From an uncultured Candidatus Bathyarchaeia archaeon (GTDB lineage Archaea > Thermoproteota > Bathyarchaeia > Bathyarchaeales > Bathycorpusculaceae): 64,000 nucleotides of DNA. The notes under the pieces were generated by a model, which saw only the letters and a program-made list of their open reading frames with translations, was not told the DNA's origin and did not search any database. This document shows positions 33,787-59,848 of this stretch, in pieces. Location of the stretch: contig CAZEPB010000002.1 in the NCBI GenBank assembly GCA_964514055.1, positions 40,797 to 104,796 on the forward strand, given 5' to 3'. The translations under genes and the position numbers were made by a program. Position 1 is the stretch's first letter. Each line of letters begins with the position of its first letter.

Positions 33787-35142
33787 CTATTTTAAAATGT
33801 AGTTTTTACCGCGTCTAATTTTTTGAATGTTGCGACAAGTCTTTCCGAATAACTGTGGGTTTTCTGTGTGTATGGGAAAGACCTTCTTTGGGTTGACTTT
33901 CTTAATTCTTTCTACTATCTCTTCTCGGTTCATGTGACCAGAAGCGTGAAGCTGGTGGAAATTAATACCGAAATGATTTAGCCAGTTATGCATTACTTCG
34001 TCTTCTATGTCTTCTTCACTGAACGGTTCGCTCATGCTATGAATAAAATGACTGTATGCGTCAGGTTTAATGTCTATCAATTCTGCAAACTGGTAGAAGT
34101 TCAAGTCCATCACCATCTCGCCTTGTTTTTCGTGTATGTTTTCGGATGTTACTTTCTTTTCTAAAAATGGGCGTTCCCAAGTGTAGTAGTCCTTTTCAAC
34201 GTGTTCTCCAGATTTCTTTCGTTTATAGTAGACCCGGATGGTTTCGTCTTTGGCGGGGTCAGGCAGGTCAAGGCGCGGGTCATCAACAAGTTTACCTAGA
34301 AGATAGGCGCTTTTTGTCGATATGATGAATTTTCGGTTATTTTCTTTCGCGACGGTGTAGAGGCTTCGGAACCTGTCCATATCTCTACTGTAGTGGGTCA
34401 CAAACACGATTTTGTCAGTATTAGCAATGATGTCGTTGCTTCCTTGCTTAACCTGCTGCTCAGAGTGATTCTTTCGTTTTTCAGTGGATGCCATGCGGGT
34501 TCCTTCACAAATCATAGCAACTGGTTCAGATTCACATGCTTTTTCGATAAACTCTTCGGTCATTTCGCTTCTCGGTCCATGAACTCTCATGTCTCCAGTG
34601 TAAACCACAGTCCCTTCTGAGGTGTGAATCAAATAACCATAAGCTGCTGGGATAGAGTGGTCAACGTGTACAGGCTCAACTGTTAAGTCCCCGATGGAGA
34701 TTGTGTCTCCTGTTCTGAAGGTTTTGTAGTTGTGTTCGCAGTAGTTGCAGTAACTGCTGGTTTCTTCTTGGGCTTCAACGAAGAGTTTGGTTCCTTCTCC
34801 GAGATAAACTGGAATTTCTGGGTCGAGGAACTTTATGTGTTCGATGTGGTCGAAGTGCGCATGAGACAAGAAAACAGCATCGATACTTGGTTTAGTGTAT
34901 GGCAAATTTGTTGGCTCAAGATTCTCTTTGCTGTATACTCCCTTCAGTTTGGGCAGCAGACCAAACTCGAAGTAGTCTTTTAATCCTGTGATTTTTCTTG
35001 CTGAAAGCCATCCAGTGAAGTAGTCAGAGCCGAAGGTGAAGGACTGCCCGAAATCTAGGAATACTCTGGTTTTTTTGTCTTCAAGGAGAATTTTGTTGCC
35101 GCCTATTTCGTTGACTCCGCCATAAAAGGTAAGCTTAGCCAT
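33787..35142 (-). CDS. MBL-fold / beta-CASP RNase J-like hydrolase
   Basis: Start moved to the ATG at 35142 (MAKLTFYGGVNEIGGNKILLED..). LSHAHFDHIEH metallo-beta-lactamase motif. The size and N-terminus resemble archaeal RNase J. Confidence 0.65.
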   Translation of the reverse strand: MAKLTFYGGVNEIGGNKILLEDKKTRVFLDFGQSFTFGSDYFTGWLSARKITGLKDYFEFGLLPKLKGVYSKENLEPTNLPYTKPSIDAVFLSHAHFDHIEHIKFLDPEIPVYLGEGTKLFVEAQEETSSYCNYCEHNYKTFRTGDTISIGDLTVEPVHVDHSIPAAYGYLIHTSEGTVVYTGDMRVHGPRSEMTEEFIEKACESEPVAMICEGTRMASTEKRKNHSEQQVKQGSNDIIANTDKIVFVTHYSRDMDRFRSLYTVAKENNRKFIISTKSAYLLGKLVDDPRLDLPDPAKDETIRVYYKRKKSGEHVEKDYYTWERPFLEKKVTSENIHEKQGEMVMDLNFYQFAELIDIKPDAYSHFIHSMSEPFSEEDIEDEVMHNWLNHFGINFHQLHASGHMNREEIVERIKKVNPKKVFPIHTENPQLFGKTCRNIQKIRRGKNYILK

Positions 35143-35314
35143 ACGCAAACATTTCCACATAAGGAATAGAGGGATATGATAATTGAATTTTATGTACCTG
35201 AAATAAGTGTGATGATTTTTGAAACTTGTACAATCAGTTTAAAATGGCGATGTCACCCGCACATTCTCCCCTTTTCTTTCAGAAAACTAAAACACCAAAT
35301 ATAATTTGGGCTTA

Positions 35315-36646
35315 TCAGATTTTTAAGACTAATTCTAGCCGAGTTTCTATAAAATAGGCAATTATAGCTGCTATTAGTCCTATTCCAAGAGAGATAAGCC
35401 CGCCCAGTATTAAATTCCCCTCCATAAAGAATATCGTGCCAATAGGCAAACCGAATAAAATCCAACCTAAAAAAAATGCAATGATAGCCATTTCACCTGC
35501 AAGCTTTTTCTTGCGCATTTCTTTAATTTCTAGTTGCTTTTCTTCAAATTCTAGTTGCTCCAATCTTGCCTGTCTCCTGCGTTCCAGTTGCTCTTTCTCA
35601 GATTGAAGTCTTTTTTTCTCGTCCTCAAGCTTCTGCTGCTCTCTTTCCGCTTTTGCTCTATCAAAGTATTCTTTTCGCATTTTCTTCTCGGCTACTGTAG
35701 GTCTTGGAATAAGTTCAAATTGGCTAAGAGCAAGAAACCCCAATTTTTCCACCAGTCCCACATGTTTTTCATTTTCAGAGTGAGATTTTATGTTCCAAGG
35801 GTCTTCCTTACCAAGCTGTTTTACTGCAATCAAAGTGTATCGAGCAACTTCGAGGCTCATTCTGTAGGCAATATTCAAGTCAAGTATAGGATTGCTCCAA
35901 GACGAAGGTCTATTAGTTAGAATGAACTGAATTAGGGCAGCTTGGCACCCTTCTATACCTGGCTTAAGATATTCTTCTTCGATAAGCGCGTCTACTCTTT
36001 CTTCGCGTTTTCGACTATCAGCCTCGAACTTTAACATGGTCAAGGAAGTAGATATACCATCCAGTTTTTTCCAATATGCATAGGAAAAATCATAAACTGA
36101 TTGTATTCCGTTGTTTTTTATCCTAATTAATAAATTGTAAAGTTTAGTATACTCATCAATTGCCTTGATTGGCAAGTCTGATTGCTTCAAATTTTCTATT
36201 AAATGTAAATCATCTAGCAAAGGTGACTGCGCAATCGCTATTTCCCATCTTGTATGTGTATCTGCTGTTCTAGGGCGAAGAGTCCATCTGTCTTGAAGGT
36301 AATGAAGTCCTATTCCCAGTTCAGAGTAGCATTCATCGTCACCTGCTAGAAACATGTTTCTTGAATTGGCGATTCTTTTCAGAATCTCGTTGTCTTTTCT
36401 TGTGTGATGCGGAAAATCTCCCCACGAGTCTGGAGTAGTTGAGCCTATCTCCAACAATTTTGTTTCTTTTTCTTTTAGCTTCAGTTCTTTTCCAATTTGC
36501 TTAGCTATTGCTATATGAGTCTTCTGAAGCAATATAGGCCACAATAACAAGTTACAGGTAATAAGCTTAAATTTTTTTAGGATTTTGACATTAATTGGAT
36601 GAATCGAAAACGGATTTGAATATGATGCTAGCGCGCTAAACAACAT
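35315..36646 (-). CDS. membrane-anchored coiled-coil protein; N-terminal region weakly Zn-dependent PLC/nuclease-P1-like
   Basis: 443-aa ORF with an uncertain true start. THIAIAKQIG .. TPDSWGDFPHH .. GLHYLQDRW form His/Asp clusters. Then come a long charged coiled coil (EREQQKLEDEKKRLQSEKEQLERRRQ..) and two C-terminal TM helices. Confidence 0.45.
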   Translation of the reverse strand: MLFSALASYSNPFSIHPINVKILKKFKLITCNLLLWPILLQKTHIAIAKQIGKELKLKEKETKLLEIGSTTPDSWGDFPHHTRKDNEILKRIANSRNMFLAGDDECYSELGIGLHYLQDRWTLRPRTADTHTRWEIAIAQSPLLDDLHLIENLKQSDLPIKAIDEYTKLYNLLIRIKNNGIQSVYDFSYAYWKKLDGISTSLTMLKFEADSRKREERVDALIEEEYLKPGIEGCQAALIQFILTNRPSSWSNPILDLNIAYRMSLEVARYTLIAVKQLGKEDPWNIKSHSENEKHVGLVEKLGFLALSQFELIPRPTVAEKKMRKEYFDRAKAEREQQKLEDEKKRLQSEKEQLERRRQARLEQLEFEEKQLEIKEMRKKKLAGEMAIIAFFLGWILFGLPIGTIFFMEGNLILGGLISLGIGLIAAIIAYFIETRLELVLKI

Positions 36647-36914: not shown

Positions 36915-38024
36915 TTAAATTTTCTTACAGGAAGAACATATGCCTTTCAAGGAAGAGTCTATATTTGATTTTTCTTTGGATCCCTCAATTACGGTTTTGA
37001 AAATATGCACATCGTGGATTGTAGACCAAAGGTAACTTTTGTTAAAATTATACATCAGTCCACGTGCTCCTTCATATGCACAATTTAAGGCTGCCATACG
37101 TTGACCAAACTTCAAAACCGACTCAACTTCTTCCATTGATGCCTCTTGGAAGCTCTCAATCCCAGAGCGACCAAGAAAGTGAATAATGCCCGCACTGCAC
37201 CAATCACCAGCGCCTGCAGTATCGATAATAACAGGCGCGTCAATTGATTCAATCGTCTTCCAATCGTTATTTTTGTCCTTTCGATTATTCAACTTATACC
37301 TTAGGCCTTTATTCCCTAAGGTTTGTATCTCTAATAAAACGTCTCTCTCGAATGGTATTTCGCATATTTGTTGCGCTGAATATTTTACTATATGGGCGAC
37401 ATCAAAAAACTCACGGAATAATTTATTCCTATATATCCTATGCGGTTCGAATACTATTAAAGCTCCACGTTGTTTCTGCAATTTTGCAAGGGTTAAAGCC
37501 GATTTTGAAACTCGGTCGACATAGAAAACTTGTACGTCCGGCATTTTTTTGGAAATTTCAAAAATCAGACGTAGAGGGACGGGCCTATTTCTTGGCAAAG
37601 CTGAGCCACAATAGGGGCATTTGAACTCAAAAACATGGGTATTCTTATTTTCTTCTTGAATTCTCTCAACTACTATAGGTGTTTGCTTTGTTTCGTCGCT
37701 ATATATGAAATCTGTTTTGACTCCCCATTCTCTAATATCTTTTAGAATAATCTTTGATGCAAGGTCCTTTCCTATACTTGCAACTGGATACGAAGACCAG
37801 CCTAGATAGGCAAGTATAGTCAAAACATTGCCACAAGAGCCGCCAATCCCAAAACTTGGGCAACTTTGCTTTTTTCCATTAATGACTATATCCAACACTA
37901 TGAGTCCGGTTCCCATGGAAACGGGTCTGGGCGTTTTTATCTCAAATAATTTCTCATCAATCATAACACTCACCCGCAATCCACAAGCTAAAGAATTCTG
38001 TTCTGAATAAATCCTTTTCAACAT
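36915..38024 (-). CDS. PfkB-family carbohydrate/nucleoside kinase with CxxC insert (operon gene 5)
   Basis: GIGGSCGNV (GG motif) and DTAGAGDWCSAGI (PfkB signature 2). There are extra CPYCGS and C-terminal CSSCKK pairs. The ATG at 37964 is the likelier start (8-nt overlap with the upstream gene). Confidence 0.75.
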   Translation of the reverse strand: MLKRIYSEQNSLACGLRVSVMIDEKLFEIKTPRPVSMGTGLIVLDIVINGKKQSCPSFGIGGSCGNVLTILAYLGWSSYPVASIGKDLASKIILKDIREWGVKTDFIYSDETKQTPIVVERIQEENKNTHVFEFKCPYCGSALPRNRPVPLRLIFEISKKMPDVQVFYVDRVSKSALTLAKLQKQRGALIVFEPHRIYRNKLFREFFDVAHIVKYSAQQICEIPFERDVLLEIQTLGNKGLRYKLNNRKDKNNDWKTIESIDAPVIIDTAGAGDWCSAGIIHFLGRSGIESFQEASMEEVESVLKFGQRMAALNCAYEGARGLMYNFNKSYLWSTIHDVHIFKTVIEGSKEKSNIDSSLKGICSSCKKI

Positions 38025-39084
38025 CCGAGGTTATTTTGTACCCCATACTTTCAACGTTTATTATTGCTACACCTCTTTTTTTAAATTCATACGCAGTTAG
38101 CAAAGCTCCAATTGATATAAGCTTACTAGATGATGCTGATAGTACTATTTGGCACTCACCAATAGCTGCAAATGCGTTTTGATAATTGTCTATTGTTCTA
38201 CATAACTGAGCGTAAACTTCAAAAGGGTTCCTTTCATGCCCGTAAAGGACGTTCTTTGGGTCAATTAGTAATCTATCAAATAAGAGTCTACGATACTCCA
38301 AGATTAAATTGTCACCTCTACGCGGGTCTTTGCTCGGCATTGGGATTAGGGGGGTAATCTCATCAGCTTTCACTTTGTCTGCAATTGTAACAAGTTGCTT
38401 CTCTTGATTTTCTCCAATTATTGGAATCCAAATCTTAATTTTGTTGGCATGCGTTACTGATTGAAGTTCACCAGTAAATCCACGAACATAAGAAGCGTCT
38501 TCAGCAATTCCATCCGCACTTATCGCACGATCAATATCTACGTTTTCGCATACGATCACATGTAAATTAATAGGTTTGTTTTCTTTTCTCATTAAATCAA
38601 CGATTGTTAGAACTTTTCCAATTAAAGGAAAGTAAATTCCACGTGGAAGAGCACTTATATCAATTATTATATCAGAATAACCTTTAAGCTCGTCAGAATC
38701 TGAAATAACACTAAAAGCTTCGCTTGAGCCAATTCGTCTACTTCCATCCTCTGATATCATTCTAACTCTCTTATTGATTCTTATACTTCCTTCTGGTATT
38801 AGACTTTTTAATTTGTCTTCGTTTTTCTCGACCAAATCGTGGTAGTTTAATGAAGGAGAATTTGGTCCCTCATCAAGTTCTATAGTTAAATAATCCCGAC
38901 GACCTTTGCCTGCTGCCGACAAAATTTTCTCGTACCCTAGACATGACCGCGAATCAAAGCCTAATCCAGAGACGTAAAGGATATCTCTAACCTTTTGGCT
39001 CAAGTACTCTCTCCAAAATAATTGAAACTGTTTCCCTTGTACCATGAAATAATTCTTCCATCGTAATTTCATGCCAAAACTCAT
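37957..39084 (-). CDS. orphan protein, alpha/beta Rossmann-like by eye (operon gene 4)
   Basis: 375 aa. Its ATG overlaps the upstream stop (ATGA). The alternating beta-alpha pattern (LYVSGLGFDSRS, IIIDISALPRGIYFPLIG, IWIPIIGEN, IVLSASSSKL) matches no motif I can name. Confidence 0.6.
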   Translation of the reverse strand: MSFGMKLRWKNYFMVQGKQFQLFWREYLSQKVRDILYVSGLGFDSRSCLGYEKILSAAGKGRRDYLTIELDEGPNSPSLNYHDLVEKNEDKLKSLIPEGSIRINKRVRMISEDGSRRIGSSEAFSVISDSDELKGYSDIIIDISALPRGIYFPLIGKVLTIVDLMRKENKPINLHVIVCENVDIDRAISADGIAEDASYVRGFTGELQSVTHANKIKIWIPIIGENQEKQLVTIADKVKADEITPLIPMPSKDPRRGDNLILEYRRLLFDRLLIDPKNVLYGHERNPFEVYAQLCRTIDNYQNAFAAIGECQIVLSASSSKLISIGALLTAYEFKKRGVAIINVESMGYKITSDVEKDLFRTEFFSLWIAGECYD

Positions 39085-41063
39085 ATGCTTCCACCCTGAA
39101 AAAGAGTTTTTTCTGGACTTTTAATGAATGATAAAAGGCTAGAGATGCGAGTTTTTCTCCAACCTCCATAGTTTAATGGTAATCCAAAATGTACACACAA
39201 AAGCCTGTTCAAATAGAAGACAGTTAATATCCGCCCTTTTTTTCCCTGCCTATATTCCGCATGTTCTTCAAGAAAATTTTGAGAAACACAAATTTTCAAG
39301 ACTTCTTTTAAAGGTGAGTAGATTGATTTCTCTCCAGAGTTTACCATTCTATTGATTTCGGTTTCCAGAACACCTATACCTGTAACACCCTCGTAGGACG
39401 CAGCTTTTCTGAAAGTCTGCTTTTTGCAAATATCTCGAATAGCCGTCAACAATGAAATAACCTCACCGCTCCTAGACACGGTATTAGGGATAGTGCTCCA
39501 AACTTCTTTTGCCACTCGTCGCAGGATTTCTTCTTGTCGTTTTGCACTTAAAGTATATCTTCTATTTAACCACACAGAGGAAATTGCTTCTTCAAAAAGG
39601 TCTCCAGCCAAATGTATAAACTGTTCTACATTAAAAGAAGCAGCTTGTACCAAACGAGAAAAGCCAAAATAATATGGAATATGAAATTCTTGGGAAAGCA
39701 AGAATTCACTAATTGATTTAATCCCAGCATCTAACTGTACTTCTTCGCTAGGTATGGGTTCGTTGAATAACCTTCTTTGGTATCTACGCTCAACTAGTAT
39801 TTCTAAAGCACGCCAACTCACTGCCTTTTCTTTGCATCCTCCTCTAGTATTTTCAATTTTTTCTATCCAAAGATCAAAGGTTTTGTCCTTCCCTAATTTT
39901 TCTCTTAATCTCTTGGAAATTATTTCAATCGCTTCAGAATATTTCTTTTCTAAAGATCTGCGATCGCTGGTATGGGTTAAGCAAGCCTCAAAAGTGTTGA
40001 ATTGCATACGTTGAGAGTCTTTGGCCAATCTAGTCCGGCGATCCGCGATTTCTCTTAACCATGATTCGAAACGCTTTTTTTTCCCTAAACTCCGCTTTCT
40101 CCAAAAGTTCTCCAGGTTAATAGTTTCACCATATTCTCTGCCGAGTTTAGTACCTGTGGAAAACAACTCTGCTGAGGAAAGCGCCTCCATCCTTTTTGCT
40201 GTCCATATGTTAATTGGTTGCCTACTTTCTGTTAGAACCTTTTCTAGCCTTTTCCTTTGATCTAAACTCAGTTTTTCCAAATCATCAAGCAGTAACAATA
40301 CCTTTTTATCAAATAATTTATTGTTTATGTATATTCCATTTGGTTGGAATAAATTCAGGCTAAAAAGTGTGTCATTTCCCTCTATTTTACTCTCTTGCTG
40401 AGGTACGAAACTATCGATAATTTGAAGAATTGACATTTCATTTTCAGTTGCCCAATCATATAGATACTGGCCGTTACAGGGTAATTTTATTTGAGGATGG
40501 ACCGAAGATGGCTTTGGGTTGACAAATTTAAGCCGACTGAGGTCTTCAGGATATGACAGCTCAAATAACTCTGATAGCCCTCTTAGTCCTGCGATGATTA
40601 TTCTGCTATTTAGAAGTGATAAGAAAAACCGAATTTTTTGACCTGTTGTCAAATCAAGATCTTCTAACAAATCATAGTTTTGATTGAAGGATAAGAAAAG
40701 ACCTAGAATATTTGGACCTTCATCTGAAAAGACGTTGAGCATTTTCAGTCTGTTGTATAGCTCCTTATACTCTTCCAAATCCCTTCTTTCATTAAGTAGA
40801 AGTAATAGCCGAGGCTCAAATAATCTGAAAAGAGAAGTTTTTCCCCCTCCTGGAGAACTCGTAAAAGGATGTACAAGAGGTCTGTTAATAATATCATCGG
40901 ATAGAATATCCAGAATTCCTGGACCAAACAGGTTTAAAAAAGTCTCGTCGTACCTTATTCTTTCAGCATCTCTTAGTATGAATGGGTTTCTTGGAGCACT
41001 CATATTAAACACTGTGTCGGTTAACTCTTGGAAAGATCCCCTTGTATTCTCTTTTAGGTTCAA
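39081..41063 (-). CDS. large P-loop NTPase (operon gene 3)
   Basis: Walker A-like SSPGGGKTS and Walker B VLLLLDDLEKL lie about 190 residues apart, followed by a long helical C-terminal half. The alternative ATG at 41003 sits 1 nt after the upstream TAA. Confidence 0.7.
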   Translation of the reverse strand: MNLKENTRGSFQELTDTVFNMSAPRNPFILRDAERIRYDETFLNLFGPGILDILSDDIINRPLVHPFTSSPGGGKTSLFRLFEPRLLLLLNERRDLEEYKELYNRLKMLNVFSDEGPNILGLFLSFNQNYDLLEDLDLTTGQKIRFFLSLLNSRIIIAGLRGLSELFELSYPEDLSRLKFVNPKPSSVHPQIKLPCNGQYLYDWATENEMSILQIIDSFVPQQESKIEGNDTLFSLNLFQPNGIYINNKLFDKKVLLLLDDLEKLSLDQRKRLEKVLTESRQPINIWTAKRMEALSSAELFSTGTKLGREYGETINLENFWRKRSLGKKKRFESWLREIADRRTRLAKDSQRMQFNTFEACLTHTSDRRSLEKKYSEAIEIISKRLREKLGKDKTFDLWIEKIENTRGGCKEKAVSWRALEILVERRYQRRLFNEPIPSEEVQLDAGIKSISEFLLSQEFHIPYYFGFSRLVQAASFNVEQFIHLAGDLFEEAISSVWLNRRYTLSAKRQEEILRRVAKEVWSTIPNTVSRSGEVISLLTAIRDICKKQTFRKAASYEGVTGIGVLETEINRMVNSGEKSIYSPLKEVLKICVSQNFLEEHAEYRQGKKGRILTVFYLNRLLCVHFGLPLNYGGWRKTRISSLLSFIKSPEKTLFQGGSI

Positions 41064-42105
41064 ACCATAGGAGCGGAATTGAGTTATTGGGTGTATTATG
41101 ATTCAAGATCAAAGGTAAAGCACATTCATTAAATCCCAGATACGGCCTGTCGTGTTTACCTTTTTTATAGCTATCAGTGATTATTGATTCGTCAAAATAT
41201 TTTTCAAGTAGTTTAAGAAATTCTTTGTCTCTTTCTCCATTTACTTTTACAGAATCAGGCAACAAACAAACAGATTTGACCTTAAATGGAATTTTACCAA
41301 ACAGCTCAGTTCCAATCTTACGTAAATATGTACACGCTTCTTCTGTTGCTATATAAAGAATCAGATGCACCCTAAGATCGGAGTGATCGAAAAGAGAATA
41401 TGCATCACCATTCTTATTACATGCAATATTAAAAAAATTGGCGAGTTTCCCTTTGAATTCCAAATTTTCTCGTCTAAGATAACTAATGCCACTTGCCGAA
41501 AAATCATCTAAAAGAAACACATTATTGAATGTGAAATTTTTCTTATCCAGCTCAATATTTAATTTATTAAGTCGTTCTTTTAATTTGTCTATCGTTTTCT
41601 GCGCCCGGTCTTTTTGGATTTCATGAGTTCGCAATATCTGTTCGTTACTTAGATTTGGGTTACTTCGTCTGAAAAGACCAATGTGAGCACCGTCACTTAG
41701 ACCCAAAAATATACTACGGTACTCGGCGACTTCGAACTCTTGGCTTTCCAAAATTTTATTGACATGCCATTCAGGGATATCTTGTTCTTTTGAAACATGA
41801 TGTATTAATATTTGCTTAATGCAATCAGGATAAGACATATCTATACAATGTTCCAGTTCATCATCCGAAATATATATGAGGCGATGTTTTATGAATCGAT
41901 ATGCTTCAACCCGTTCTTCCTTATTCTTAAATTGAGAAAGCCACATTGCTAAACTTTCAAAAAAATGCATTCCTTGAAAAAAAGGTTGATATTCATCATA
42001 CTTAAATGCAGCTAAAAACAATAAATCAGGTCGCTCTTTTGCTATGTCTTCTGGGTTCCACTGCATCGTTTTCGCTAGAATCTGTCCAACTAAATTTTCG
42101 TTCAC
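41005..42105 (-). CDS. phosphoribosyltransferase-like protein (operon gene 2)
   Basis: 366 aa with a GTG start 2 nt after the upstream stop. NNVFLLDDFSASGISY fits the type I PRTase PRPP-loop pattern (4 hydrophobic residues, DD, x-x, S/T-G-x-S/T). The N-terminal half is helical and unassigned. Confidence 0.55.
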   Translation of the reverse strand: MNENLVGQILAKTMQWNPEDIAKERPDLLFLAAFKYDEYQPFFQGMHFFESLAMWLSQFKNKEERVEAYRFIKHRLIYISDDELEHCIDMSYPDCIKQILIHHVSKEQDIPEWHVNKILESQEFEVAEYRSIFLGLSDGAHIGLFRRSNPNLSNEQILRTHEIQKDRAQKTIDKLKERLNKLNIELDKKNFTFNNVFLLDDFSASGISYLRRENLEFKGKLANFFNIACNKNGDAYSLFDHSDLRVHLILYIATEEACTYLRKIGTELFGKIPFKVKSVCLLPDSVKVNGERDKEFLKLLEKYFDESIITDSYKKGKHDRPYLGFNECALPLILNHNTPNNSIPLLWFEPKREYKGIFPRVNRHSV

Positions 42106-42107
42106 CT

Positions 42108-44060
42108 CTAACCCCCTCTAAGAATGTTCATATCAAATTTTGCTTCCCCATTTCTACTATGAATTGCCTTCAAATAATCTTCAGCAGCTTGTGTACATCT
42201 ATGTCCAGCTGGAGCCAAGTTCCAACAAGTGTTGGGATTAGGAGAAACAGTATCTACACTTAGTGAATTCTGAACACTTAGGAGGTAAAAATCGTTTCCA
42301 GGCCACTTGCCTTTATCCCCTATACACAATATTGAATTAGTTTTTTGATTGTTGCGATTTTGAATCTCTATTAAAACATTTAATTTACTGACTTTTGGAG
42401 CTAGAACGTCAATAGAATGATCAGATTCAAGAATCTGAATTGTTCTTAAATCATCCTTATTTTCCACTATATTTCGCAAGTACTGACTTAGCTCCTTGAT
42501 AGAATGATTTCTCTTCGGGGTGAAAGTAATTTGATTTGGACGACATTCTGACTTTGAAATAAGATTGAAGTATCCATTATTACTTAAATGATCCATCAAC
42601 AATTTAAGCTTTGGTTCTATTGCTTCGCTCTTGTTAGGTCTTGTCAAATCATTTAATAGTCCTATGTCTGAACCATTGTAATAGCCAATTAGCATTTTTG
42701 ACCAATATCTCTTAGGTATCATTTTTTGTAGATCGTTCCTGACTGACTTCCCACGACCGGTAGCTATGCCAATAGAAATATCGCCGTCTAATAACCTAGT
42801 CAAATGCCCTCCAATTGTTCCTGATATTCCCTCATATCTCTTTTTTGTGTTGCAAAGCGTGCCATCATAATCGAAGACTACCGAATGGTAAGTGTTTGTT
42901 TCCAGATTTTTTACAAATTTGTTACATGCCTTAATCCAGAAATCAATAATTTCATTGTCCATAAAAAAGTTAGGTGGAATTTTTCTTTTTATGGCTCTAA
43001 TTAGAAAAGGATTACTTCGTTTTACAAGGGGGATTCGATTTCTGAATAAATCAGAAGGAACGGTAAGGTGGTACAGTTTCCTACCAAAGGTAGGGACACG
43101 TGGTTGCCCAGGATCAACATCATGATATTCACCAAAAACACCCACTAAATACATAGCTTTAACAAGTAGGGACAGAGCGCCAACAGACCCATTAAGTTTG
43201 GTCGTTAACCTAATGATTGGGACGTCCTTAGGTATTAATTCCAAGTGTTTCTCTGCTAGCCTTTTATCTTCAGGTGAGATTAATGCAAGTACACCCGATT
43301 CGCTAGGCCACTTCGCTAACCAGTAATGTCTTCCATGTGCAAAATTACGATAATCGGCTAGCCGCACATTGCATAATGCGGACTCTGTGAATTTAGACTC
43401 TAAATCAAAAGCAGCAGGTTTTCCCCATTTACCGTGCAACACAATTAAGGTTCTTTTTCGCACTAATGGATTTAATTGTGTCTTCAGACATGAATACAGC
43501 TCTTGAGAACTATATTCGATTAAAGTATTAAACGAGATAGGAAGCCGATCACCCGGGAAAAATTCTTCTTGTGTCCGGAGTAAAACAAGGAAAAACGTAA
43601 GAAGGGAATTAGTTGCAAGAAAACCGTCTTTCTTAGATGGAGGTTCGAATTCACATAAATGTGCAAATCTAAATTTATTCACAATTTTTCCGATAGCGCT
43701 TCCTTTTTTCGTACACAAAACTAATAATTGTCGTGCTTCATTTCTTATTGCATTCTTTACAGCCAGCAATACGTCAGAGTTTCCTCCTTTTGCAGTGAAG
43801 AGTATTACAGAAGTATTTTGGATGTTGATGTCAGCCGTAATGAACTCTAACGGCGTTAAATATTGTGCATGCATTCCTAGCTCTTGGTGAAGCAGAGACG
43901 TAAATATCGCTGCAGTAAAGGAACCGCCCGAGCCTACAGCAATCAATGGAAGAGTACCAGACAAACTACGAAAGGCAGTTAAGCTGCTAATATCAGTAGT
44001 TAGACCCCAGTTATATGTCAAAGGCATGCGTTCAATTTCCTTTAGGTAATTCTTGCCCAA
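42108..44060 (-). CDS. double-SIS phosphosugar-binding domain fused to HAD-IIB phosphatase (operon gene 1)
   Basis: 650 aa with a TTG start. LIAVGSGGSFTAA and FLATNSLL (SIS 1), HGKWGKPAAFDLESKFTE..NFAHGRH (SIS 2, GlmS/AgaS-like). Then VVFDYDGTLC, IATGRG and CIGDKGKWPGND (HAD motifs I, II and IV). Confidence 0.75.
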   Translation of the reverse strand: MGKNYLKEIERMPLTYNWGLTTDISSLTAFRSLSGTLPLIAVGSGGSFTAAIFTSLLHQELGMHAQYLTPLEFITADINIQNTSVILFTAKGGNSDVLLAVKNAIRNEARQLLVLCTKKGSAIGKIVNKFRFAHLCEFEPPSKKDGFLATNSLLTFFLVLLRTQEEFFPGDRLPISFNTLIEYSSQELYSCLKTQLNPLVRKRTLIVLHGKWGKPAAFDLESKFTESALCNVRLADYRNFAHGRHYWLAKWPSESGVLALISPEDKRLAEKHLELIPKDVPIIRLTTKLNGSVGALSLLVKAMYLVGVFGEYHDVDPGQPRVPTFGRKLYHLTVPSDLFRNRIPLVKRSNPFLIRAIKRKIPPNFFMDNEIIDFWIKACNKFVKNLETNTYHSVVFDYDGTLCNTKKRYEGISGTIGGHLTRLLDGDISIGIATGRGKSVRNDLQKMIPKRYWSKMLIGYYNGSDIGLLNDLTRPNKSEAIEPKLKLLMDHLSNNGYFNLISKSECRPNQITFTPKRNHSIKELSQYLRNIVENKDDLRTIQILESDHSIDVLAPKVSKLNVLIEIQNRNNQKTNSILCIGDKGKWPGNDFYLLSVQNSLSVDTVSPNPNTCWNLAPAGHRCTQAAEDYLKAIHSRNGEAKFDMNILRGG

Positions 44061-44098
44061 ACTTCACAACCAACTAGAAACTAATATGGTTAAAAGGA

Positions 44099-44108
44099 CT
44101 TTATAATT
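44099..44108 (-). promoter_or_regulatory. TATA-like box for the five-gene operon
   Basis: The minus-strand aattataaag is centred about 44 nt upstream of the TTG start at 44060. Confidence 0.4.
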
Positions 44109-44754
44109 GGTATGTGACCCATGCTCTGGCTCCATCCGTTGATAGTCTGCATTTTGCTCTGTTTCTAGAGAAACACTTTGGCAAGAATGCTAATTTGAGG
44201 AAAATCATTATTTACATTTAACCAATAAAACCCTGCATGAAACGAAATTAGTCCAATTTCATCTAAGTTAACTTAGCATCTTACGCAGTATAACCACTAA
44301 AATAACTATTTTTGGCACAAATAAATAGTCAAAAACAAATCATAAACTAGAAGTGAACCTTAATCTATAAAACATCGTGAAAAGCTTCTTAGAAAAACTA
44401 AAAAAGGTTACTTAGAATGAAGGCTTTTTGTTTGTTTAGGATGGACAACGACTACCACTACCATAAGAAAAATTTTGGCAAGTCAAATAAAATCAATGTT
44501 AAAAATGGGTTTTTTAACCTTAACTTAAAAAACCGATAAGTTAGGATTCTTGGACTAAAATTTAATTTCCTTCCTTTTATACCAGCTTCCAGGTCATTGG
44601 GGAAAACAGCAGACTTGGTGAATATCGCTGCTAACTTTTTGTAGGGGAGAAACAGATAAGCAGACCATCATAGAGGTCTTAATCTTTTCATTTCCTACCC
44701 TCTAAGATAAGTCTGGTTTCTCCCTCCTTTTTACAACAATGAATATTTTCAAAT

Positions 44755-45225
44755 TTATTTCAAGTCTTTAATTCTTTTTATTGTCTCTTCAAAGTCTAGC
44801 CACTTTGGTATATTGGCTATTTGATTCGTAATTTCTTCAATTTGAATAATTGGCTTTATCTCAGCGTTTAATCTTCTTCGGCGTTCTTCCGCTGTAAGGT
44901 TAAAGAAAACCCATAAACAAGCATTTGAATTATCTGGGCTAACTCTAAATTCGTAGAGTTCAAAACCAAAAGGAATGTTAATGTTGTGCTCTGTAACTGG
45001 AATAGGCTTAGCAATTCCAAGTTCAGCTAATAAGTCTAAACCTGACTTGACTAACTTCTCCCAATTACCCGTTTTCTCGATAATACTTGTCACGTTTCTT
45101 TCATCTTCTTCGGTGATATCGAAATAACCCGTTCGCACTCTGCATCTAACAGTTTCTCCTCTCATCATTTCAAAATCACAAAATTTGTATTTCCCGAAAG
45201 TAAATTCTTGGGGCATAGGAACCAC
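44755..45225 (-). CDS. hypothetical protein, divergent partner of the TIR-like gene
   Basis: 156-aa ORF with clean coding appearance and no nameable motif. It shares a 98-nt AT-rich divergent promoter region with 45324-46175. Confidence 0.5.
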   Translation of the reverse strand: MVPMPQEFTFGKYKFCDFEMMRGETVRCRVRTGYFDITEEDERNVTSIIEKTGNWEKLVKSGLDLLAELGIAKPIPVTEHNINIPFGFELYEFRVSPDNSNACLWVFFNLTAEERRRRLNAEIKPIIQIEEITNQIANIPKWLDFEETIKRIKDLK

Positions 45226-45323: not shown

Positions 45324-46175
45324 ATGTCATCAGAAAAGCGATATTACCATGTTCAATTGAAATATACAGAACCCCAAAAAACAGGGATGGGAACACTTAC
45401 TTCTTACCCAAAAACTGAACAAGAGTTTGATTTGTCAGAAGAGGATGCAACTGAATTGGGCGAGCAATATTCTAAAGGATGTATTCTTTTCAAAGGGAAG
45501 TGGATTGAGGTATCAAATATTGAAGAGATTGAAATTCGAGAAACAACAGCGAAATCAAACACGCTATGGGGAAGTTCAGTTTTTCAATCTTCAACGGCAA
45601 ACGTTGTAACAAGACGTTTCATAAAATCACCACCTAGAAAAGGCTCTGCTGCTCCTCAGCCTATTAGTGAATCCGCTAAAATAGTAACACAGGCAAAAAG
45701 TAAAGATGTTTTTATTGTTCACGGCAATGACTATGAACCACTGAAAGAGCTAAAAACGATGCTTTATGATTTAGGTCTAAATCCCATAGTTTTACATGAA
45801 CAACCAAGTGGAAGTAAGACGGTGGTTGAGAAGCTCGAACACTACTCAGATGTTGGTTATGCGTTTGTAATTCTGACTCCTGATGATATGGGTTGTTCAG
45901 GTAATGAATTAAGAAAAGCCATCATTGCTCAGTATCCTATGGAAAAAATATTGAGCATGTTTAGAAATAGAGCAAGACAGAATGTTGTTCTAGAATTTGG
46001 TTATTTTATCAATAAATTAGGTCGTTCTCGAGTTTGTTGTTTATACAAAGGTGACGTAGAATTACCATCGGATATGCAAGGAATTGTGTATATTCCTTTT
46101 CGCAACTCTGTTGAAGAAGTTCGAGTAAGAATAATGAAAGAACTCAAACAGGCTAAATATGATGTAAGAATCTAA
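45324..46175 (+). CDS. TIR-like nucleotide-binding domain protein (COG4271 / Cap12-PycTIR-type) with unknown N-terminal domain
   Basis: 283 aa. The C-terminal half has VFIVHGNDYEPLKELKTML, FVILTPDDMG and RARQNVVLEFGYFINKLGRSRV, the signature I recall for the bacterial TIR-like family. Confidence 0.7.
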   Translation: MSSEKRYYHVQLKYTEPQKTGMGTLTSYPKTEQEFDLSEEDATELGEQYSKGCILFKGKWIEVSNIEEIEIRETTAKSNTLWGSSVFQSSTANVVTRRFIKSPPRKGSAAPQPISESAKIVTQAKSKDVFIVHGNDYEPLKELKTMLYDLGLNPIVLHEQPSGSKTVVEKLEHYSDVGYAFVILTPDDMGCSGNELRKAIIAQYPMEKILSMFRNRARQNVVLEFGYFINKLGRSRVCCLYKGDVELPSDMQGIVYIPFRNSVEEVRVRIMKELKQAKYDVRI

Positions 46176-46640: not shown

Positions 46641-47600
46641 TCACCTATTTGGAATATTAAAGTTGATAGTTTTTTCAAACTCGCTGTTAATTTCGCCAGA
46701 CGATGGCGCTGAATATATCATTGTAATTCTAATATCAGAATGTCTCATCACCTCTTTTAAGACTTGAAGGTCGCCTTTGTTATTTCTCCATAAGTGTCCG
46801 AAGACATGACGCATTTTGTGAAGAGTGACTTTATTTCCTTCGCGGTCTTCAATCACCGTCTTTTCACAATAGCGATAAAACCATTTAAGCAAAGTTTTGT
46901 AGGAAACGGGGATAACACGAGAGTTGGGTTCACGCTTACTCACTGAATGCAACAAATAAATGCTAAAATCGTTAAGCGGAATCAATACAGCTGGGTCGCC
47001 AACTTTGGTTGATTTTGGAAAATACCTTTCGCCCTTGTGACGTTGCAGATTGATTTTTTTATTTTCTAAGTCCAAGTCTTCAAAATATAAACCCAATACC
47101 TCGCCTGGACGCAAGCCATCAAAAGCCATTAGGCTCCAGCCAAGGGCAAACTCTTGTGAATAAGGATTTTTCTTATCATTTTGCGTGACTTCAATTAGCT
47201 TCAATATTTGTTCAATTGGAATATCAACCCTAAACTTGTTTTGAGGCTGAACCTCTTTCATGTTATCTCTGAGCCATTTAGAATCATCTCGCCTTCCGAG
47301 GCTGTTGAATAATGCCCTCATAAATCGCTTGTATGCAACTGCGCTGTTCATTGATTTGTAGTAAGAGGTTTTAAGGTCATATCTTCCCATTTTTTGGATA
47401 AAGGCTTTAGCGTGAAGGCAGTTCATCTCGCTGAGTGAAATCCACTGTTCATCAAGAAACGCCTCCAAATTTCTACAGTAGCTTTTATAGGTGCTTGAGG
47501 TTCGCCTTTCACTTTTCTGGGAGAATGTGATGAGTTCGGGAATCGTAAGCTCCCGTGATATAGGTCTGCCACCAACTGAAACGGTTTTTATCATTTTCAC
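46641..47600 (-). CDS. tyrosine recombinase / integrase
   Basis: 319 aa. GLRPGEV (Arg I), LHKMRHVFG (H-x-x-R) and MRHSDIRITMIYS (catalytic Tyr region). Confidence 0.85.
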   Translation of the reverse strand: MKMIKTVSVGGRPISRELTIPELITFSQKSERRTSSTYKSYCRNLEAFLDEQWISLSEMNCLHAKAFIQKMGRYDLKTSYYKSMNSAVAYKRFMRALFNSLGRRDDSKWLRDNMKEVQPQNKFRVDIPIEQILKLIEVTQNDKKNPYSQEFALGWSLMAFDGLRPGEVLGLYFEDLDLENKKINLQRHKGERYFPKSTKVGDPAVLIPLNDFSIYLLHSVSKREPNSRVIPVSYKTLLKWFYRYCEKTVIEDREGNKVTLHKMRHVFGHLWRNNKGDLQVLKEVMRHSDIRITMIYSAPSSGEINSEFEKTINFNIPNR

Positions 47601-47608
47601 ATCCGTGA

Positions 47609-47902
47609 CTAGGGGTTTTTAGCACGACTCCCCTCGCCTTTTTTTGTCAAGTTTCCCTCTTGCTTCCGTGTCCAGGGTTTGCGCCAAGGTCGTAATTCAA
47701 TGCCTTTTCTACGGGCTTGATGAGCAATACTGTCAACTTTTCCCTTTGGTATTCCGTACTTGCGGAGAAAATATTTGTAGTTGAGAAACGGCTTTTCCTT
47801 CAACTCGCCAATCACTAACTGGCTGATGTTGACTTCTTCCCTTCTGAAGCGCTCCCCATTGATGATGATATAGTCTTTTTCCTCAGAGTTTTCTTGAATC
47901 AA
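47609..47902 (-). CDS. small basic protein (possible excisionase/HTH)
   Basis: 97 aa. Its start overlaps the upstream gene stop by 4 nt, and it lies directly upstream of the integrase. Confidence 0.45.
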   Translation of the reverse strand: MIQENSEEKDYIIINGERFRREEVNISQLVIGELKEKPFLNYKYFLRKYGIPKGKVDSIAHQARRKGIELRPWRKPWTRKQEGNLTKKGEGSRAKNP

Positions 47903-48237
47903 TTTTCGATCCCTCCGTTTCTGTCAACCTCTTTTAAAAATTCTAAGCCTTTCGACGTTAGGCGATAGTAGTCACGGCTGTACAGCCTTCGGTTGCCAGT
48001 TGATATTACGATTAGACCTCTGCCCGACGTTGAACATGTTGGTAAAAGGACTTTTTCAACCAAACCTAACTCAATAAGCTCATCCAGAAAAATAGTCACA
48101 TCTTTAGCGTAAAGACGGTTTTTCATAGTGATTTTTGATTTTATCAATGGCTTCTGAAGAATTGACATGCAAATACGATAGGCTTTTTCAAAGCTTATCT
48201 TGACTTGAGAAAAATTAATCAGCTCTATTCGCGCCAA
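47899..48237 (-). CDS. winged-helix DNA-binding protein
   Basis: 112 aa. LYAKDVTIFLDELIELGLVEK ... YRLTSKGLEFLKE is a wHTH-like pattern. Confidence 0.5.
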   Translation of the reverse strand: MARIELINFSQVKISFEKAYRICMSILQKPLIKSKITMKNRLYAKDVTIFLDELIELGLVEKVLLPTCSTSGRGLIVISTGNRRLYSRDYYRLTSKGLEFLKEVDRNGGIEN

Positions 48238-48282
48238 CTTGTTTTGCCTCCCTATTTCGTTCTTTCGTGTAGATGCAATCCA

Positions 48283-48456
48283 TTAGGCAACACCAATTAT
48301 GACTGTGTCACTTTTAGTCCAGTAGAGGTTGCCCTTAGGAGTTCTGAAAACTTCAACGTCTTTTTTGTCTAACAGCTTTTGGAACTCAGCACTTGACATC
48401 TCAATGATGCAAATGTCTTCAGGGATTGAGATTTTATCAACATCTATGACCTGCAT
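48283..48456 (-). CDS. 57-aa hypothetical protein (not in ORF track)
   Basis: MQVIDVDKISIPEDICIIEMSSAEFQKLLDKKDVEVFRTPKGNLYWTKSDTVIIGVA. Its ATG overlaps the TAA of the upstream RHH ORF (TAATG). Confidence 0.4.
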   Translation of the reverse strand: MQVIDVDKISIPEDICIIEMSSAEFQKLLDKKDVEVFRTPKGNLYWTKSDTVIIGVA

Positions 48457-48626
48457 TACTCACATTCGCCGTCCTTCAGAAAGCCCATATCTTCAAGCCT
48501 ACGTCTAACAGCGTCGCGGATGAAGTCTGATTTATTCGCAAAGGTTGTTTCGGGAAGGGCATCAACCAACACTTTGTCAAGTTTCTTGGGAACTTGGATG
48601 CCCCAAACAGTTGTTAGTTGATCCAT
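48456..48626 (-). CDS. 56-aa ribbon-helix-helix (CopG-like) protein (not in ORF track)
   Basis: MDQLTTVWGIQVPKKLDKVLVDALPETTFANKSDFIRDAVRRRLEDMGFLKDGECE. The beta-strand and helix pattern with KSDFIRDAVRRRL is typical of RHH. A ggaggt lies 7 nt upstream. Confidence 0.55.
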   Translation of the reverse strand: MDQLTTVWGIQVPKKLDKVLVDALPETTFANKSDFIRDAVRRRLEDMGFLKDGECE

Positions 48627-48855
48627 AGGTTAAACCTCCGCTTAGTTCTACTACCTTAGCTATGGGAAGTTCTATAAAAGCTTTAGGGATTTTTTATAAT
48701 AAATCAAATAAAAGGATAAATAATATTGAAATTAATAATGATTTTGCGTTAAAAAAAACGCATCAATTCTAAATTGTAACCAAAACGCTTATTAGGCTAT
48801 TTTTTTACTATAAACGGCATTAAAGGATAACTAAAATTAAACTAAAGATGATAAC

Positions 48856-49110
48856 ATGCGTAGAAAAGTCAGTACACCTGAATACGAGGCAAAAGTACTA
48901 GAAGCACTAAGCAACGTAGAAAACCCAGTGACTGTTCAATTTATTGCAGACCAATGTGAGCTTGGCTGGGGCACCGCTCGCGCTGTTCTTTATGATTTAA
49001 CTCTCCAGGGTAGGATTAAGATGCAACAAACGACTAGTACACCTTTTTTTTGTTTAGAAAGAGGAGAAGAAGAAAAGAAGAGTGAAGAAAATGGAAACAA
49101 CCAAAAATGA
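48856..49110 (+). CDS. winged-helix DNA-binding protein
   Basis: 84 aa. VLEALSNVENPVTVQFIADQCELGWGTARAVLYDLTLQGRI is a wHTH pattern. Confidence 0.5.
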   Translation: MRRKVSTPEYEAKVLEALSNVENPVTVQFIADQCELGWGTARAVLYDLTLQGRIKMQQTTSTPFFCLERGEEEKKSEENGNNQK

Positions 49111-49303
49111 TACAATAACAGTTAAGGTTGTAGGTACTAGAACGGCTGTTGAACAATTTGTTAAATTGACAAACCTAATTTTTCCGTTGAATGTGAAATC
49201 AAAGCTTTTGGAAAATAGAAGTCCAGTTGATGGAAAAGTTCACATCTTCATAGACCTTAATCCCTTCGCTGTACCTGATAAAGTAGAACTTAACTGGAGG
49301 TAG
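49082..49303 (+). CDS. small hypothetical protein
   Basis: 73-aa ORF in operon position, overlapping the previous gene end. Confidence 0.35.
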   Translation: MKKMETTKNDTITVKVVGTRTAVEQFVKLTNLIFPLNVKSKLLENRSPVDGKVHIFIDLNPFAVPDKVELNWR

Positions 49304-49309
49304 AATAGA

Positions 49310-50773: not shown

Positions 50774-50774
50774 T

Positions 50775-50889
50775 ATTCTTAAATTTTTAATTCTTAAAAG
50801 GACTAATGGTATTAAGGATATAATTATATTATCAGTTATATTATATTCTTAATTAATTTAAGAATTAGGAAAATTAAGAAATTAAGAAT
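50775..50889. repeat. cluster of six ATTCTTAA/TTAAGAAT octamers including a 21-bp palindrome
   Basis: attcttaa occurs at 50775, 50790 and 50845. ttaagaat/ttaagaaa occurs at 50858, 50874 and 50882. The palindrome attcttaattaatttaagaat spans 50845-50865. Confidence 0.8.
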
Positions 50890-50904
50890 GTTGGGTGATA
50901 ATAA

Positions 50905-51441: not shown

Positions 51442-51446
51442 CTTGA

Positions 51447-51899: not shown

Positions 51900-51935
51900 T
51901 CTTTTAAACGACTTTGTTAATTTAGCTTCAGCGAG

Positions 51936-53817: not shown

Positions 53818-53979
53818 ATTAGTTCCTCCAGCACCACTTACCCTTAGCCAAACTCACAGTATTTAAACGCTATTTGATAGACAGCGTATGAGATGTTTGA
53901 CACACCTTGTCTAAGGTGCCAGCTCTTTCACTCAAACTTCACTCTCCGCTGATCAGTCATGTCATTTCTTTGAAGCGGA

Positions 53980-57235: not shown

Positions 57236-57350
57236 AATTTACTAAAAATCTGGAAATAGCAAGCAAATTTTCACTTTAACAGCACTCTGTACAACTTCGG
57301 AAGGTCGTTTCTTCACTTGTTTTTTATTTGCTCTACGCCTAAGTTAGCTC

Positions 57351-59847: not shown

Positions 59848-59848
59848 C

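Follow-up and report, generated by a model that had tools for sequence, protein, structure and literature searches.

A five-gene cassette joining a PRTase-CE protein, an ORC/Cdc6-like ATPase and a CARF6-family protein to two sugar-phosphate enzymes, a candidate mobile conflict system in Archaea and Bacteria

What do five tightly packed genes of unlike families do together in a low-GC island of an archaeal genome? The question is raised by a stretch of 64,000 nucleotides (here the window) from an uncultured Candidatus Bathyarchaeia archaeon (assembly GCA_964514055.1, contig CAZEPB010000002.1, positions 40,797 to 104,796), in which five open reading frames (ORFs) at 36915–44060 are all transcribed in the same direction on the minus strand over ~7 kb. 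In order of transcription they encode a fusion of two SIS domains with a HAD-IIB domain, a PRTase-CE protein, an ORC/Cdc6-like AAA+ ATPase, a CARF6-family protein and a PfkB-family sugar kinase. The parts are of known kinds and their assembly matches no characterised system. The five genes recur together, in the same order, in about fifteen phyla, and we take the cassette, with belief and doubt in about equal measure, to be a self-contained mobile conflict system, most likely serving defence against viruses or plasmids.

Gene 1 (42108–44060; minus strand, as are all five) encodes the SIS-SIS-HAD-IIB fusion of 650 aa from a TTG start at 44060, which is chosen because an N-terminus of the form MGKPY/F..EL is conserved among homologues. 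Gene 2 (41005–42105; 366 aa, GTG start) encodes the PRTase-CE protein and gene 3 (39081–41003; 640 aa) the ATPase; the longest ORF of gene 3 runs from a TTG at 41063, and the ATG at 41003 is preferred on account of the conserved N-terminus M..RNPF and an NCBI-derived product of 640 aa. Gene 4 (37957–39084; 375 aa) encodes the CARF6-family protein, with tandem Rossmann-like domains, and gene 5 (36915–37964; 349 aa) the PfkB/ribokinase-family sugar kinase, whose longest ORF starts at 38024 and whose start is placed at ATG 37964 because the NCBI-derived product has 349 aa. The genes are separated by gaps of 1–2 nt or overlap by 4–8 nt: TAG-ag-GTG joins genes 1 and 2, TAA-t-ATG genes 2 and 3, an ATGA overlap genes 3 and 4, and ATGATTGA, an 8-nt overlap, genes 4 and 5. 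Upstream of gene 1, on the same strand, lies a 694-bp spacer (44061–44754) with no ORF of at least 80 aa. It contains a TTATAAA box at 44100–44106, ~40–46 nt upstream of the TTG, and probably serves the operon as its promoter region in the archaeal host.

An earlier reading of this DNA, made from the letters alone (the sequence-only reading), had described the same five co-directional minus-strand ORFs at these positions, together with the ORF-free 694-bp spacer and a TATA-like box ~44 nt upstream of the first start, and all are found there. Its four junctions read exactly as it gave them, and the motifs that it picked out in genes 1, 2, 3 and 5 are all present and invariant or nearly so among homologues. 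It had left two start options each for genes 3 and 5, of which the shorter are supported. No Rfam family matches in the window, the upstream spacer included, and blastn of the upstream regions across the loci described below reveals no conserved element, such as an operator or a counterpart of retron non-coding RNA, beyond close relatives. A non-coding gap of 430–1000 bp often precedes the first cassette gene (44061–44754 in the window; also at loci L085, L086, L087 and L089).

Is the arrangement peculiar to this archaeon? One genome per species was surveyed for 185,579 species, giving 185 relatives, and the best 80 loci were analysed as six-frame ORFs searched with the five window proteins. 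All five genes are present in the same order at 80 of 80 loci as far as the contig reaches. Genes 1 to 5 were counted at 71, 76, 79, 80 and 78 of them respectively, with each miss falling at a contig end, and three copies (L008, L033 and L048) look fragmented. The co-occurrence of the five genes is far beyond chance. The sequence-only reading had supposed that they form one functional unit, and had counted an order confined to one genome as evidence against its view; the supposition is borne out, and the order, far from being confined to one genome, is common to all of these loci. No sixth conserved gene was found at the 80 loci.

The cassette is rare, occurring in ~0.1% of bacterial and archaeal species, and the 80 loci are spread over ~15 phyla of both domains. 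Archaeal carriers are found in Bathyarchaeota, Methanoregula, Methanosarcina, Methanotrichaceae and Nitrosopumilaceae, and bacterial carriers in Myxococcota, Bacteroidota, Planctomycetota, Acidobacteriota, Chloroflexota, Armatimonadota, Nitrospirae, Verrucomicrobiota and Bacillota, a Synechococcus and others. Sequence identity across the two domains of life is 35–50%, and the archaeal window copy has its nearest relatives among Bacteria (Armatimonadota and Bacillota). Even the most distant listed member of the CARF6 family lies in the same cassette. About 20 further copies are on plasmids of Rhizobiales, Burkholderiales, Sphingomonas and actinobacteria (26–37% identity), and nine of these plasmids are conjugative.

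The plasmid copies show where the cassette can be divided. With S for SIS-HAD, P for PRTase, A for ATPase, C for CARF6 and K for PfkB, the gene order on plasmids is S-P-A-C-K, S-K-P-A-C in Bradyrhizobium p187_1 (L084), or P-A-C-S-K in Paenarthrobacter pTC2 (L088) and Bosea (L090). The PRTase-ATPase-CARF6 trio is contiguous in every order, and SIS-HAD and PfkB move together. All five genes are retained, with the exception of Burkholderia gladioli bgla_2p, where the 19-kb region fetched contains no PfkB gene and has a NADAR gene instead. The same division appears in the sequences: pairwise-identity matrices of the five proteins, taken over 63 complete loci, correlate with r of 0.87–0.94, and the highest values are those between genes 1 and 5 (0.935) and within genes 2, 3 and 4 (0.92–0.94). 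These data show that the cassette is one co-inherited, horizontally spread unit of two co-evolving modules.

What might the first module, the trio, do? Gene 2 matches Pfam PF24390 (PRTase-CE) with E 1.2e-19 (71.6 bits; cut-off 27) and, near full length, the PADLOC PRTase_III-A models with E 1.3e-12. By its sequence it is a divergent type I phosphoribosyltransferase (PRTase)-like protein. Its phosphoribosyl pyrophosphate (PRPP) loop, FLLDDFSASG (~41482–41520, minus strand), has an invariant LLDDF core with D200 and D201, and a Gx14PNN motif follows at ~41080–41136 (minus strand) with G324, P339 and N340 invariant and N341 near-invariant. The motif Gx14PNNxP is specific to the clade of retron PRTases (PMC12746101). 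The label PRTase_III-A could be taken for the name of a CRISPR accessory protein; that interpretation was rejected, as it refers to retron type III-A (PMC7736814). An AlphaFold2 model of gene 2 has a pLDDT of 88.9 and no significant neighbour in the PDB; Foldseek returns weak matches (E 0.01–0.2), mostly to type I PRTases (OPRT, UPRT, HGPRT and TT1426). No sequence relatives of genes 2, 3 or 4 were found in the PDB.

In Retron-Eco11 the PRPP motif is needed for defence, and phage helicases trigger an activation in which PRPP falls and infection is abortive (PMC12746101). Gene 2 falls in the clade of type III-A retron effectors and is therefore likely to be an output and not a biosynthetic step only. 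No other cassette component has a relative whose part in immunity has been studied by experiment, which is why we take gene 2 as the output here. The sequence-only reading recognised the PRTase and cast it as a step in making a nucleoside-type metabolite; the enzyme family stands, and the match to type III-A retron effectors had been missed. The cassette shares with type III-A retrons the near-full-length PRTase match, the kind of PRPP loop, the Gx14PNN motif and a probable nucleic-acid-binding partner. It differs in that its loci lack a reverse transcriptase, a non-coding RNA and multicopy single-stranded DNA (msDNA), and gene 2 lacks a fused winged-helix tail and is accompanied by an AAA+ ATPase, a CARF-like protein and two sugar-phosphate enzymes. 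Since it has neither reverse transcriptase nor non-coding RNA, the cassette is not a retron. PRTase-superfamily proteins also occur as toxins in the anti-phage systems ShosTA/PsyrTA (DprA-PRTase), and a PRTase with a HAD protein has been proposed to make a nucleoside-like compound in Ter systems; in contrast to these, the cassette has no DprA, TerD or ATP-grasp partner, and gene 2 matched retron-type PADLOC models only and no model bearing the name of ShosTA or PsyrTA.

Gene 3 matches Pfam PF24389 (ORC-CDC6-like; E 5e-21, 75.4 bits, cut-off 27), as do 24 of 24 homologues (best E 1.4e-30). Its Walker A motif SPGGGKTS (~40833–40859, minus strand) conforms to PGGGKT/S, with G52, G54 and K55 invariant, and the two aspartates of Walker B (D240 and D241; ~40281–40286, minus strand) are likewise invariant. 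Retron PRTases pair or fuse with a winged-helix DNA-binding partner (PMC7736814), and the place of that partner would here be held by the ORC/Cdc6-like ATPase.

This pairing bears on a first alternative, in which the PRTase would use PRPP to attach phosphoribose to an exocyclic base amine in the DNA or RNA of the invader or the host, comparable to the ADP-ribosylation of DNA bases by DarT, and the SIS-HAD, PfkB and, at loci that have it, NADAR proteins would trim, rearrange or erase the adduct. NADAR genes stand beside the cassette on three proteobacterial plasmids: Burkholderia gladioli bgla_2p (L083 6418–7011, plus strand), Paraburkholderia p22B1P2 (L089 13153–13677, minus strand) and Bosea vestrisii (L090 15109–15612, minus strand). 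The three match one another at E ~1e-72 and are orthologous, and in B. gladioli the end of one gene and the start of the other, NADAR and SIS-HAD, share 4 nt. NADAR proteins are N-glycosidases that act on ribosyl-N (ribosyl-amine) bonds; they strip ADP-ribose from guanine and hydrolyse ribosylamino-pyrimidines. A role of PRTases near DNA has a further parallel in the ComFC type, which functions in DNA uptake (PMC5512222). Against this stand the absence of NADAR from all 80 genome loci, the lack of any demonstrated DNA-binding domain in gene 2 or gene 3 and of any linked nuclease or repair gene, and the substrates known for GlmS-type SIS and PfkB enzymes, which are free sugar phosphates and not polymers. 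We regard base modification as decidedly improbable. The NADAR genes also fit a ribosyl-amine intermediate of the kind considered below.

The third member of the trio, gene 4, had been described in the sequence-only reading as an orphan. It belongs instead to the CARF6 family, matching PADLOC model CARF6--CARF_CARF_CARF (PDLC01910) with E 1.5e-110 over residues 8–375 and model positions 2–348 of 348. Its AlphaFold2 model (pLDDT 91, pTM 0.91) consists of tandem Rossmann-like domains. Directly after the predicted strand 138–142 lies a CARF-type signature, D142-I-S144-A-x-P-R148 (~38641–38661, minus strand), in which the D is present in 29 of 29 homologues, the S in 27 of 29 and R or K in 26 of 29; the ligand pocket of CARF domains is defined by the pattern [DN]x[ST]xxx[RK] after strand 4 (PMC4012209). 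Gene 4 is predicted to be a ligand sensor. It shares with the rest of its family (PADLOC PDLC01910, 01916, 01922 and 01924) full length, a stand-alone multi-Rossmann architecture and the strand-4 signature. The family is small: 1.84 billion proteins yielded 852 cluster representatives at E up to 1e-3, and 405 at 1e-30. Close homologues number in the hundreds in metagenomes. Nearly all members are stand-alone proteins of 355–400 aa without a fused effector domain.

One protein departs from this form. P0305 (559 aa; L091 1650–3329 and L092 1625–3304) joins ~297 N-terminal CARF6 residues to a PfkB domain. It comes from an NCBI assembly and a Logan assembly that may share the same data, and could be a genuine fusion of CARF6 with the kinase or else an artefact of deletion or assembly.

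The second module comprises genes 1 and 5. In gene 1 Pfam sees the HAD domain alone (Hydrolase_3, 30.1 bits, cut-off 20.9), and the nearest NCBIfam model is TIGR01484 (HAD-IIB; 32.7 bits, under its cut-off of 41.8). The HAD-IIB domain (~42201–42893, minus strand), assigned from Pfam, NCBIfam and its motifs as a phosphatase or phosphomutase, has all of HAD motifs I–IV invariant, and its weak PDB matches are to Cof-type phosphatases and phosphomannomutases (PMM), both of subfamily IIB. Searched against the PDB as a single sequence, the SIS half gave nothing informative. A PDB search with a profile built from 25 homologues identifies a double-SIS module of the GlmS/NagB-II type at ~43071–44003 (minus strand), through glucosamine-6-phosphate deaminases of the NagB-II/GlmS type (8eol and 3hba; E 3e-6, 220 residues aligned). 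Four motifs of gene 1 pair with those of 8eol/3hba: GSGGS with GRGSS (the phosphate loop), SASGxNxD with SQSGRSPD, ESKxTE with LKLKE, and NFAHG with EFLHG. Across the 25 homologues GSGGS, KDGFLATN, ESK..E, NFAHGRH, DYDGT, TGRG, K559 and GD.G..GND are invariant. No NCBIfam SIS-family model matches gene 1 at E up to 0.01, so that no equivalog orthology can be assigned.

Gene 5 matches Pfam PfkB (E 1.7e-16, 60.9 bits, cut-off 25.8), and its profile finds the sugar kinase PH1459, ketohexokinase and fructokinase in the PDB (E 7e-13 to 1e-8). The catalytic motif D.AGAGDW (~37203–37223, minus strand) has invariant D248, G251, G253 and D254, and in the N-terminal GG.CGN the residues G41, G42, G45 and N46 are invariant. 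Judged by these profile matches the protein is closest to keto- and fructokinases; all substrate-specific NCBIfam equivalogs score far under their cut-offs. Two CxxC pairs, one in an insert FKCPYCG (residues ~116–119) and one in a C-terminal CSSC, occur together in 36 of 64 homologues and are both missing from 18, which suggests a lineage-variable zinc-ribbon-like element.

A SIS isomerase, a PfkB kinase and a HAD phosphatase had led the sequence-only reading to the enzyme triad of the ADP-heptose route and, as one of its hypotheses, to a horizontally acquired synthesis of glycan precursors. GmhA, the HldE kinase domain and GmhB do belong to these families, and the likeness goes no further than the superfamily. 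The SIS module is of the double GlmS/NagB-II type and not of the GmhA type; the HAD domain is of subfamily IIB and not GmhB-type, GmhB belonging to subfamily IIIA; domain I of rfaE scores 18.8 bits on the kinase (cut-off 345); and no nucleotidyltransferase or glycosyltransferase is linked at any locus. The three non-metabolic partners would also be left unexplained. Both the triad and the glycan-precursor hypothesis fail on this evidence, and an ADP-heptose-like pathway is effectively refuted at the subfamily level.

Another parallel is found in the metabolism of sugar amines. Double-SIS enzymes of the GlmS/NagB-II/FrlB type convert ketose phosphates to and from amino-sugar or ketosamine phosphates, and a PfkB kinase with a double-SIS deglycase constitutes the FrlD/FrlB route for Amadori compounds. 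The gene 1 SIS module aligns with these enzymes including their Glu and His motifs, gene 5 is a PfkB protein, and their pairing mirrors that of Frl. The cassette differs in that no equivalog threshold is reached, the SIS module is fused to HAD-IIB, and the two genes are locked to the PRTase-ATPase-CARF trio. PRTases that use an amine acceptor yield N-phosphoribosylamines, which are classic substrates of Amadori rearrangement (TrpD/TrpF and HisG/HisA).

How could the two modules work together in defence? The analysis shows the gene content, the intact motifs, the family assignments and the conservation, mobility and genomic context of the cassette. From these we infer the defence role itself, which has good support, the PRTase as its effector, the division of labour between the modules and the chemistry. 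The trio would form the sensing and output core. Once activated, the PRTase would move phosphoribose to an amine or base acceptor and use up PRPP, and the loss of PRPP would starve nucleotide synthesis and abort the infection, by analogy with type III-A retron effectors. The ATPase would act as the switch and as a probable nucleic-acid-binding partner, standing in for the winged-helix partner and the RT-msDNA complex of retrons, and CARF6 would be a small-molecule-binding regulator of the PRTase. The SIS-HAD-IIB fusion and the PfkB kinase would handle a phosphosugar-amine metabolite of the N-ribosylamine or Amadori ketosamine type. In one version this second module may build the ligand that CARF6 reads; in another it may regenerate the acceptor, such that PRPP and, through the kinase, ATP are burnt catalytically. 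Either specific chemistry is unlikely at best. The broader proposal that a phosphosugar-amine, in place of an oligonucleotide, serves as an immune second messenger or catalytic co-substrate, made and turned over by the isomerase-phosphatase fusion and the ketohexokinase-like kinase, read by a CARF-like protein and an ATPase and ending in PRPP exhaustion, is possible but not probable. As a general frame the idea put forward in the sequence-only reading, that the NTPase and its then unnamed partner are sensor-regulators of a small-molecule pathway, serves best, and the CARF-like nature of gene 4 strengthens it.

A number of points count against a defence system of this kind. The cassette contains no classical toxin such as a nuclease, a pore or an NADase, so its output is assumed, and no experimental work on any cassette member was found in the searchable literature. 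The likeness of gene 2 to retron PRTases is moderate (E 1e-12), and the drop in PRPP seen with Retron-Eco11 is just ~50% (PMC12746101). The CARF-like designation of gene 4 derives from the PADLOC name, one motif and a Csm6 match of low rank: none of 29 gene 4 members matches a Pfam CARF family at E up to 1, the top Foldseek matches are C-terminal double-Rossmann domains of KCC/NKCC (TM 0.22–0.27), and the CARF domain of Csm6 (8jbb) comes 49th (probability 1.0, 170 columns, rmsd 5.9). Nor does the cassette include an enzyme that makes any known CARF ligand. There is no settled rationale for a pathway that has both a kinase and a phosphatase, and the HAD-IIB domain could, from its sequence, equally be a phosphomutase or a phosphatase. 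Many of the genes flanking the cassette are ordinary housekeeping genes.

The lack of a classical toxin domain speaks for a different account, in which the four enzymes form a pathway to a toxic antiviral or antimicrobial metabolite, nucleoside-like or derived from a ribosylamine, and the ATPase and CARF6 regulate it. Viperin, which makes a chain terminator, is a model for such a factory, as is the biosynthesis of nucleoside antibiotics. The catalytic motifs are intact in all four enzymes, and the succession of PRTase, Amadori-type isomerase and phosphatase follows the established biochemistry of histidine, tryptophan and coformycin-type nucleosides. A nucleoside-like metabolite made by a PRTase and a HAD protein has been proposed for Ter systems, in earlier work cited in PMC5512222. 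This account has to contend with the grouping of gene 2 with effector-type retron PRTases and not with biosynthetic ones, and with the lack of export, self-resistance, tailoring or sixth conserved genes. It explains the kinase-phosphatase pair no better, and we consider it unlikely.

The surroundings of the cassette are informative as to whether it serves defence or metabolism. Its flanks vary by locus and often carry mobile-element or defence genes. In the 150 flanking ORFs closest to the cassette, Pfam families that recur are integrases, Fic, HTH_17, IstB, resolvase, RadC and DDE transposases, and PADLOC identifies in the flanks type I restriction-modification methyltransferases, BrxE/BrxL, DrmD, PtuA, SoFic, mad2 and several PDC candidates. 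The named kinds of defence represented are type I restriction-modification, BREX, DISARM, Septu, SoFic, toxin-antitoxin and nSTAND. Individual copies sit in small islands between core genes, together with toxin-antitoxin genes, nSTAND3, DUF4365, ArdC/RadC, HNH and serine recombinase genes, and one plasmid copy adjoins Tn7-like tnsB/tniB/tniQ genes. Searches for viral carriage (phage records, IMG/VR and PHROGs) gave no match and no link to counter-defence, which is neutral.

These contexts can be set against a non-immune alternative: a mobile module that breaks down or salvages an Amadori/opine-like or nucleoside-type compound, FrlD/FrlB-like in its chemistry, with the ATPase and CARF6 as unusual regulators. 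PfkB with a GlmS/FrlB-like double SIS is a known ketosamine-degradation pair, there are copies on Rhizobium and Agrobacterium plasmids, which are rich in opine and sugar-amine catabolic loci, and some genomic flanks are metabolic. However, no transporter or conventional transcription factor is linked at any locus, no NCBIfam Frl or related equivalog is reached, and the cassette sits in defence or mobile-element islands. Its carriers include autotrophic or specialised archaea (Nitrosopumilus, Methanoregula and Methanosarcina) and a cyanobacterium, and a catabolic module would have no role for an effector-type PRTase and an AAA+ ATPase. We give this alternative little credence. At L093, a metagenomic locus, a 607-aa protein with a HisG (ATP phosphoribosyltransferase) domain is encoded ~660 bp upstream of the cassette (674–2497, plus strand). 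It is probably incidental; HisG chemistry, PRPP plus an amine followed by an Amadori rearrangement, parallels the pathway proposed above.

Does the proposed conflict system correspond to a named one? With type III CRISPR, CBASS and Thoeris it would share a Rossmann-type sensor that reads a small molecule and controls an abortive-infection output. It differs from them in that neither the cassette nor any conserved neighbour supplies a Cas10, CD-NTase, TIR or cyclase, and in a CARF6 protein without a fused effector; the TIR gene of the window is encoded on the opposite strand and is not a conserved neighbour at other loci. No Cas10 or other oligoadenylate synthase is found in the cassette, among the most frequent families listed for the 150 nearest flanking ORFs at the 80 loci, or among the window ORFs scanned. 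As it lacks Cas10, CD-NTase, TIR and cyclase, the cassette is not a known CARF/SAVED pathway. To our knowledge, sugar-phosphate enzymes as candidate signal makers are without precedent in second-messenger immunity of the CRISPR, CBASS or Thoeris style.

The sequence-only reading recognised no named defence, modification or biosynthetic system in this combination, and the searches agree. PADLOC models match two of the five proteins (genes 2 and 4) and leave three without a match, NCBIfam has no family-specific model for the PRTase-ATPase-CARF6 trio, and plasmid records annotate all three trio proteins as hypothetical. A full-text literature search found no paper on the five-gene set, and an earlier computational description may exist. 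The CARF6 family was reportedly catalogued in a 2020 census of CARF and SAVED proteins, and since PF24389 and PF24390 are also consecutive Pfam accessions, the neighbourhood may have been partly noted before.

If the cassette is an immune system, PRTase-like effectors would be a portable output driven by very different sensors, beyond retrons and toxin-antitoxin systems, and CARF-type sensors, so far tied to oligoadenylates and related nucleotides, would be linked to sugar-phosphate enzymology and a new class of ligand. Were the phosphosugar-amine proposal also true, it would amount to a new signalling chemistry for CARF sensors common to Bacteria and Archaea. The cassette gives a functional handle on the hypothetical families PRTase-CE, ORC-CDC6-like and CARF6. 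It is compact and well conserved, and both conjugative plasmids and hosts that can be cultured carry it, which makes the hypothesis directly testable.

In the window itself the cassette (G+C ~36–38%) lies in a low-GC island of ~30 kb between flanks of 44–49%. Genes in the core part of the window for aNOP56 and a stand-alone GMP-synthase C-terminal subunit show the host to be an archaeon; an anaerobic ribonucleotide reductase and an acetyl-CoA synthetase are also encoded there. The cargo of the island comprises GmrSD, an RNase J-like metallo-beta-lactamase, a phospholipase C-like membrane protein, TIR, HEPN, PIN-like, SIR2_2 and DUF3987 proteins and two integrases. The placement of the operon in an AT-rich island between a GmrSD-like and a TIR-like gene, made in the sequence-only reading, is correct, and the TIR protein is of the CAP12 type. 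The phospholipase C-like, RNase J-like, GmrSD and TIR neighbours are treated as separate cargo because they are not conserved beside the cassette elsewhere.

Downstream of the cassette, 35315–36646 (minus strand) encodes a 443-aa protein with a weakly zinc phospholipase C-like N-terminus, which matches no PADLOC model. It has a segment rich in Glu, Lys, Arg and Gln that by eye resembles a coiled coil, and a hydrophobic stretch at the C-terminus; it could be an effector in its own right that acts on membranes. Beyond it is the RNase J-like beta-CASP metallo-beta-lactamase (33787–35160, minus strand; TIGR00649, E 2.5e-32), which bears a faint likeness to cyclic-nucleotide-degrading phosphodiesterases and Apyc1. 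On the upstream side, a gene for a 156-aa protein with no family match (44755–45225, minus strand) is divergent to that for the CAP12/Pycsar-type TIR protein (45324–46175, plus strand; PADLOC candidate PDC-S35, E 2.8e-63), and the two look like a separate candidate defence gene pair.

No tRNA was found in the window, and no convincing att-like direct repeats were found around the island. Further to the right a first tyrosine integrase (46641–47600) is followed by a DUF3987 protein (49310–50773), a HEPN_LA2681 protein with TPR repeats (52234–53817), a 683-aa protein with a weak PIN_3 match (55184–57235), a SIR2_2 protein (58069–59847) and a second tyrosine integrase (59849–61138). The region 46641–61138 could thus represent one integrated element, or two, with a heavy load of defence genes.

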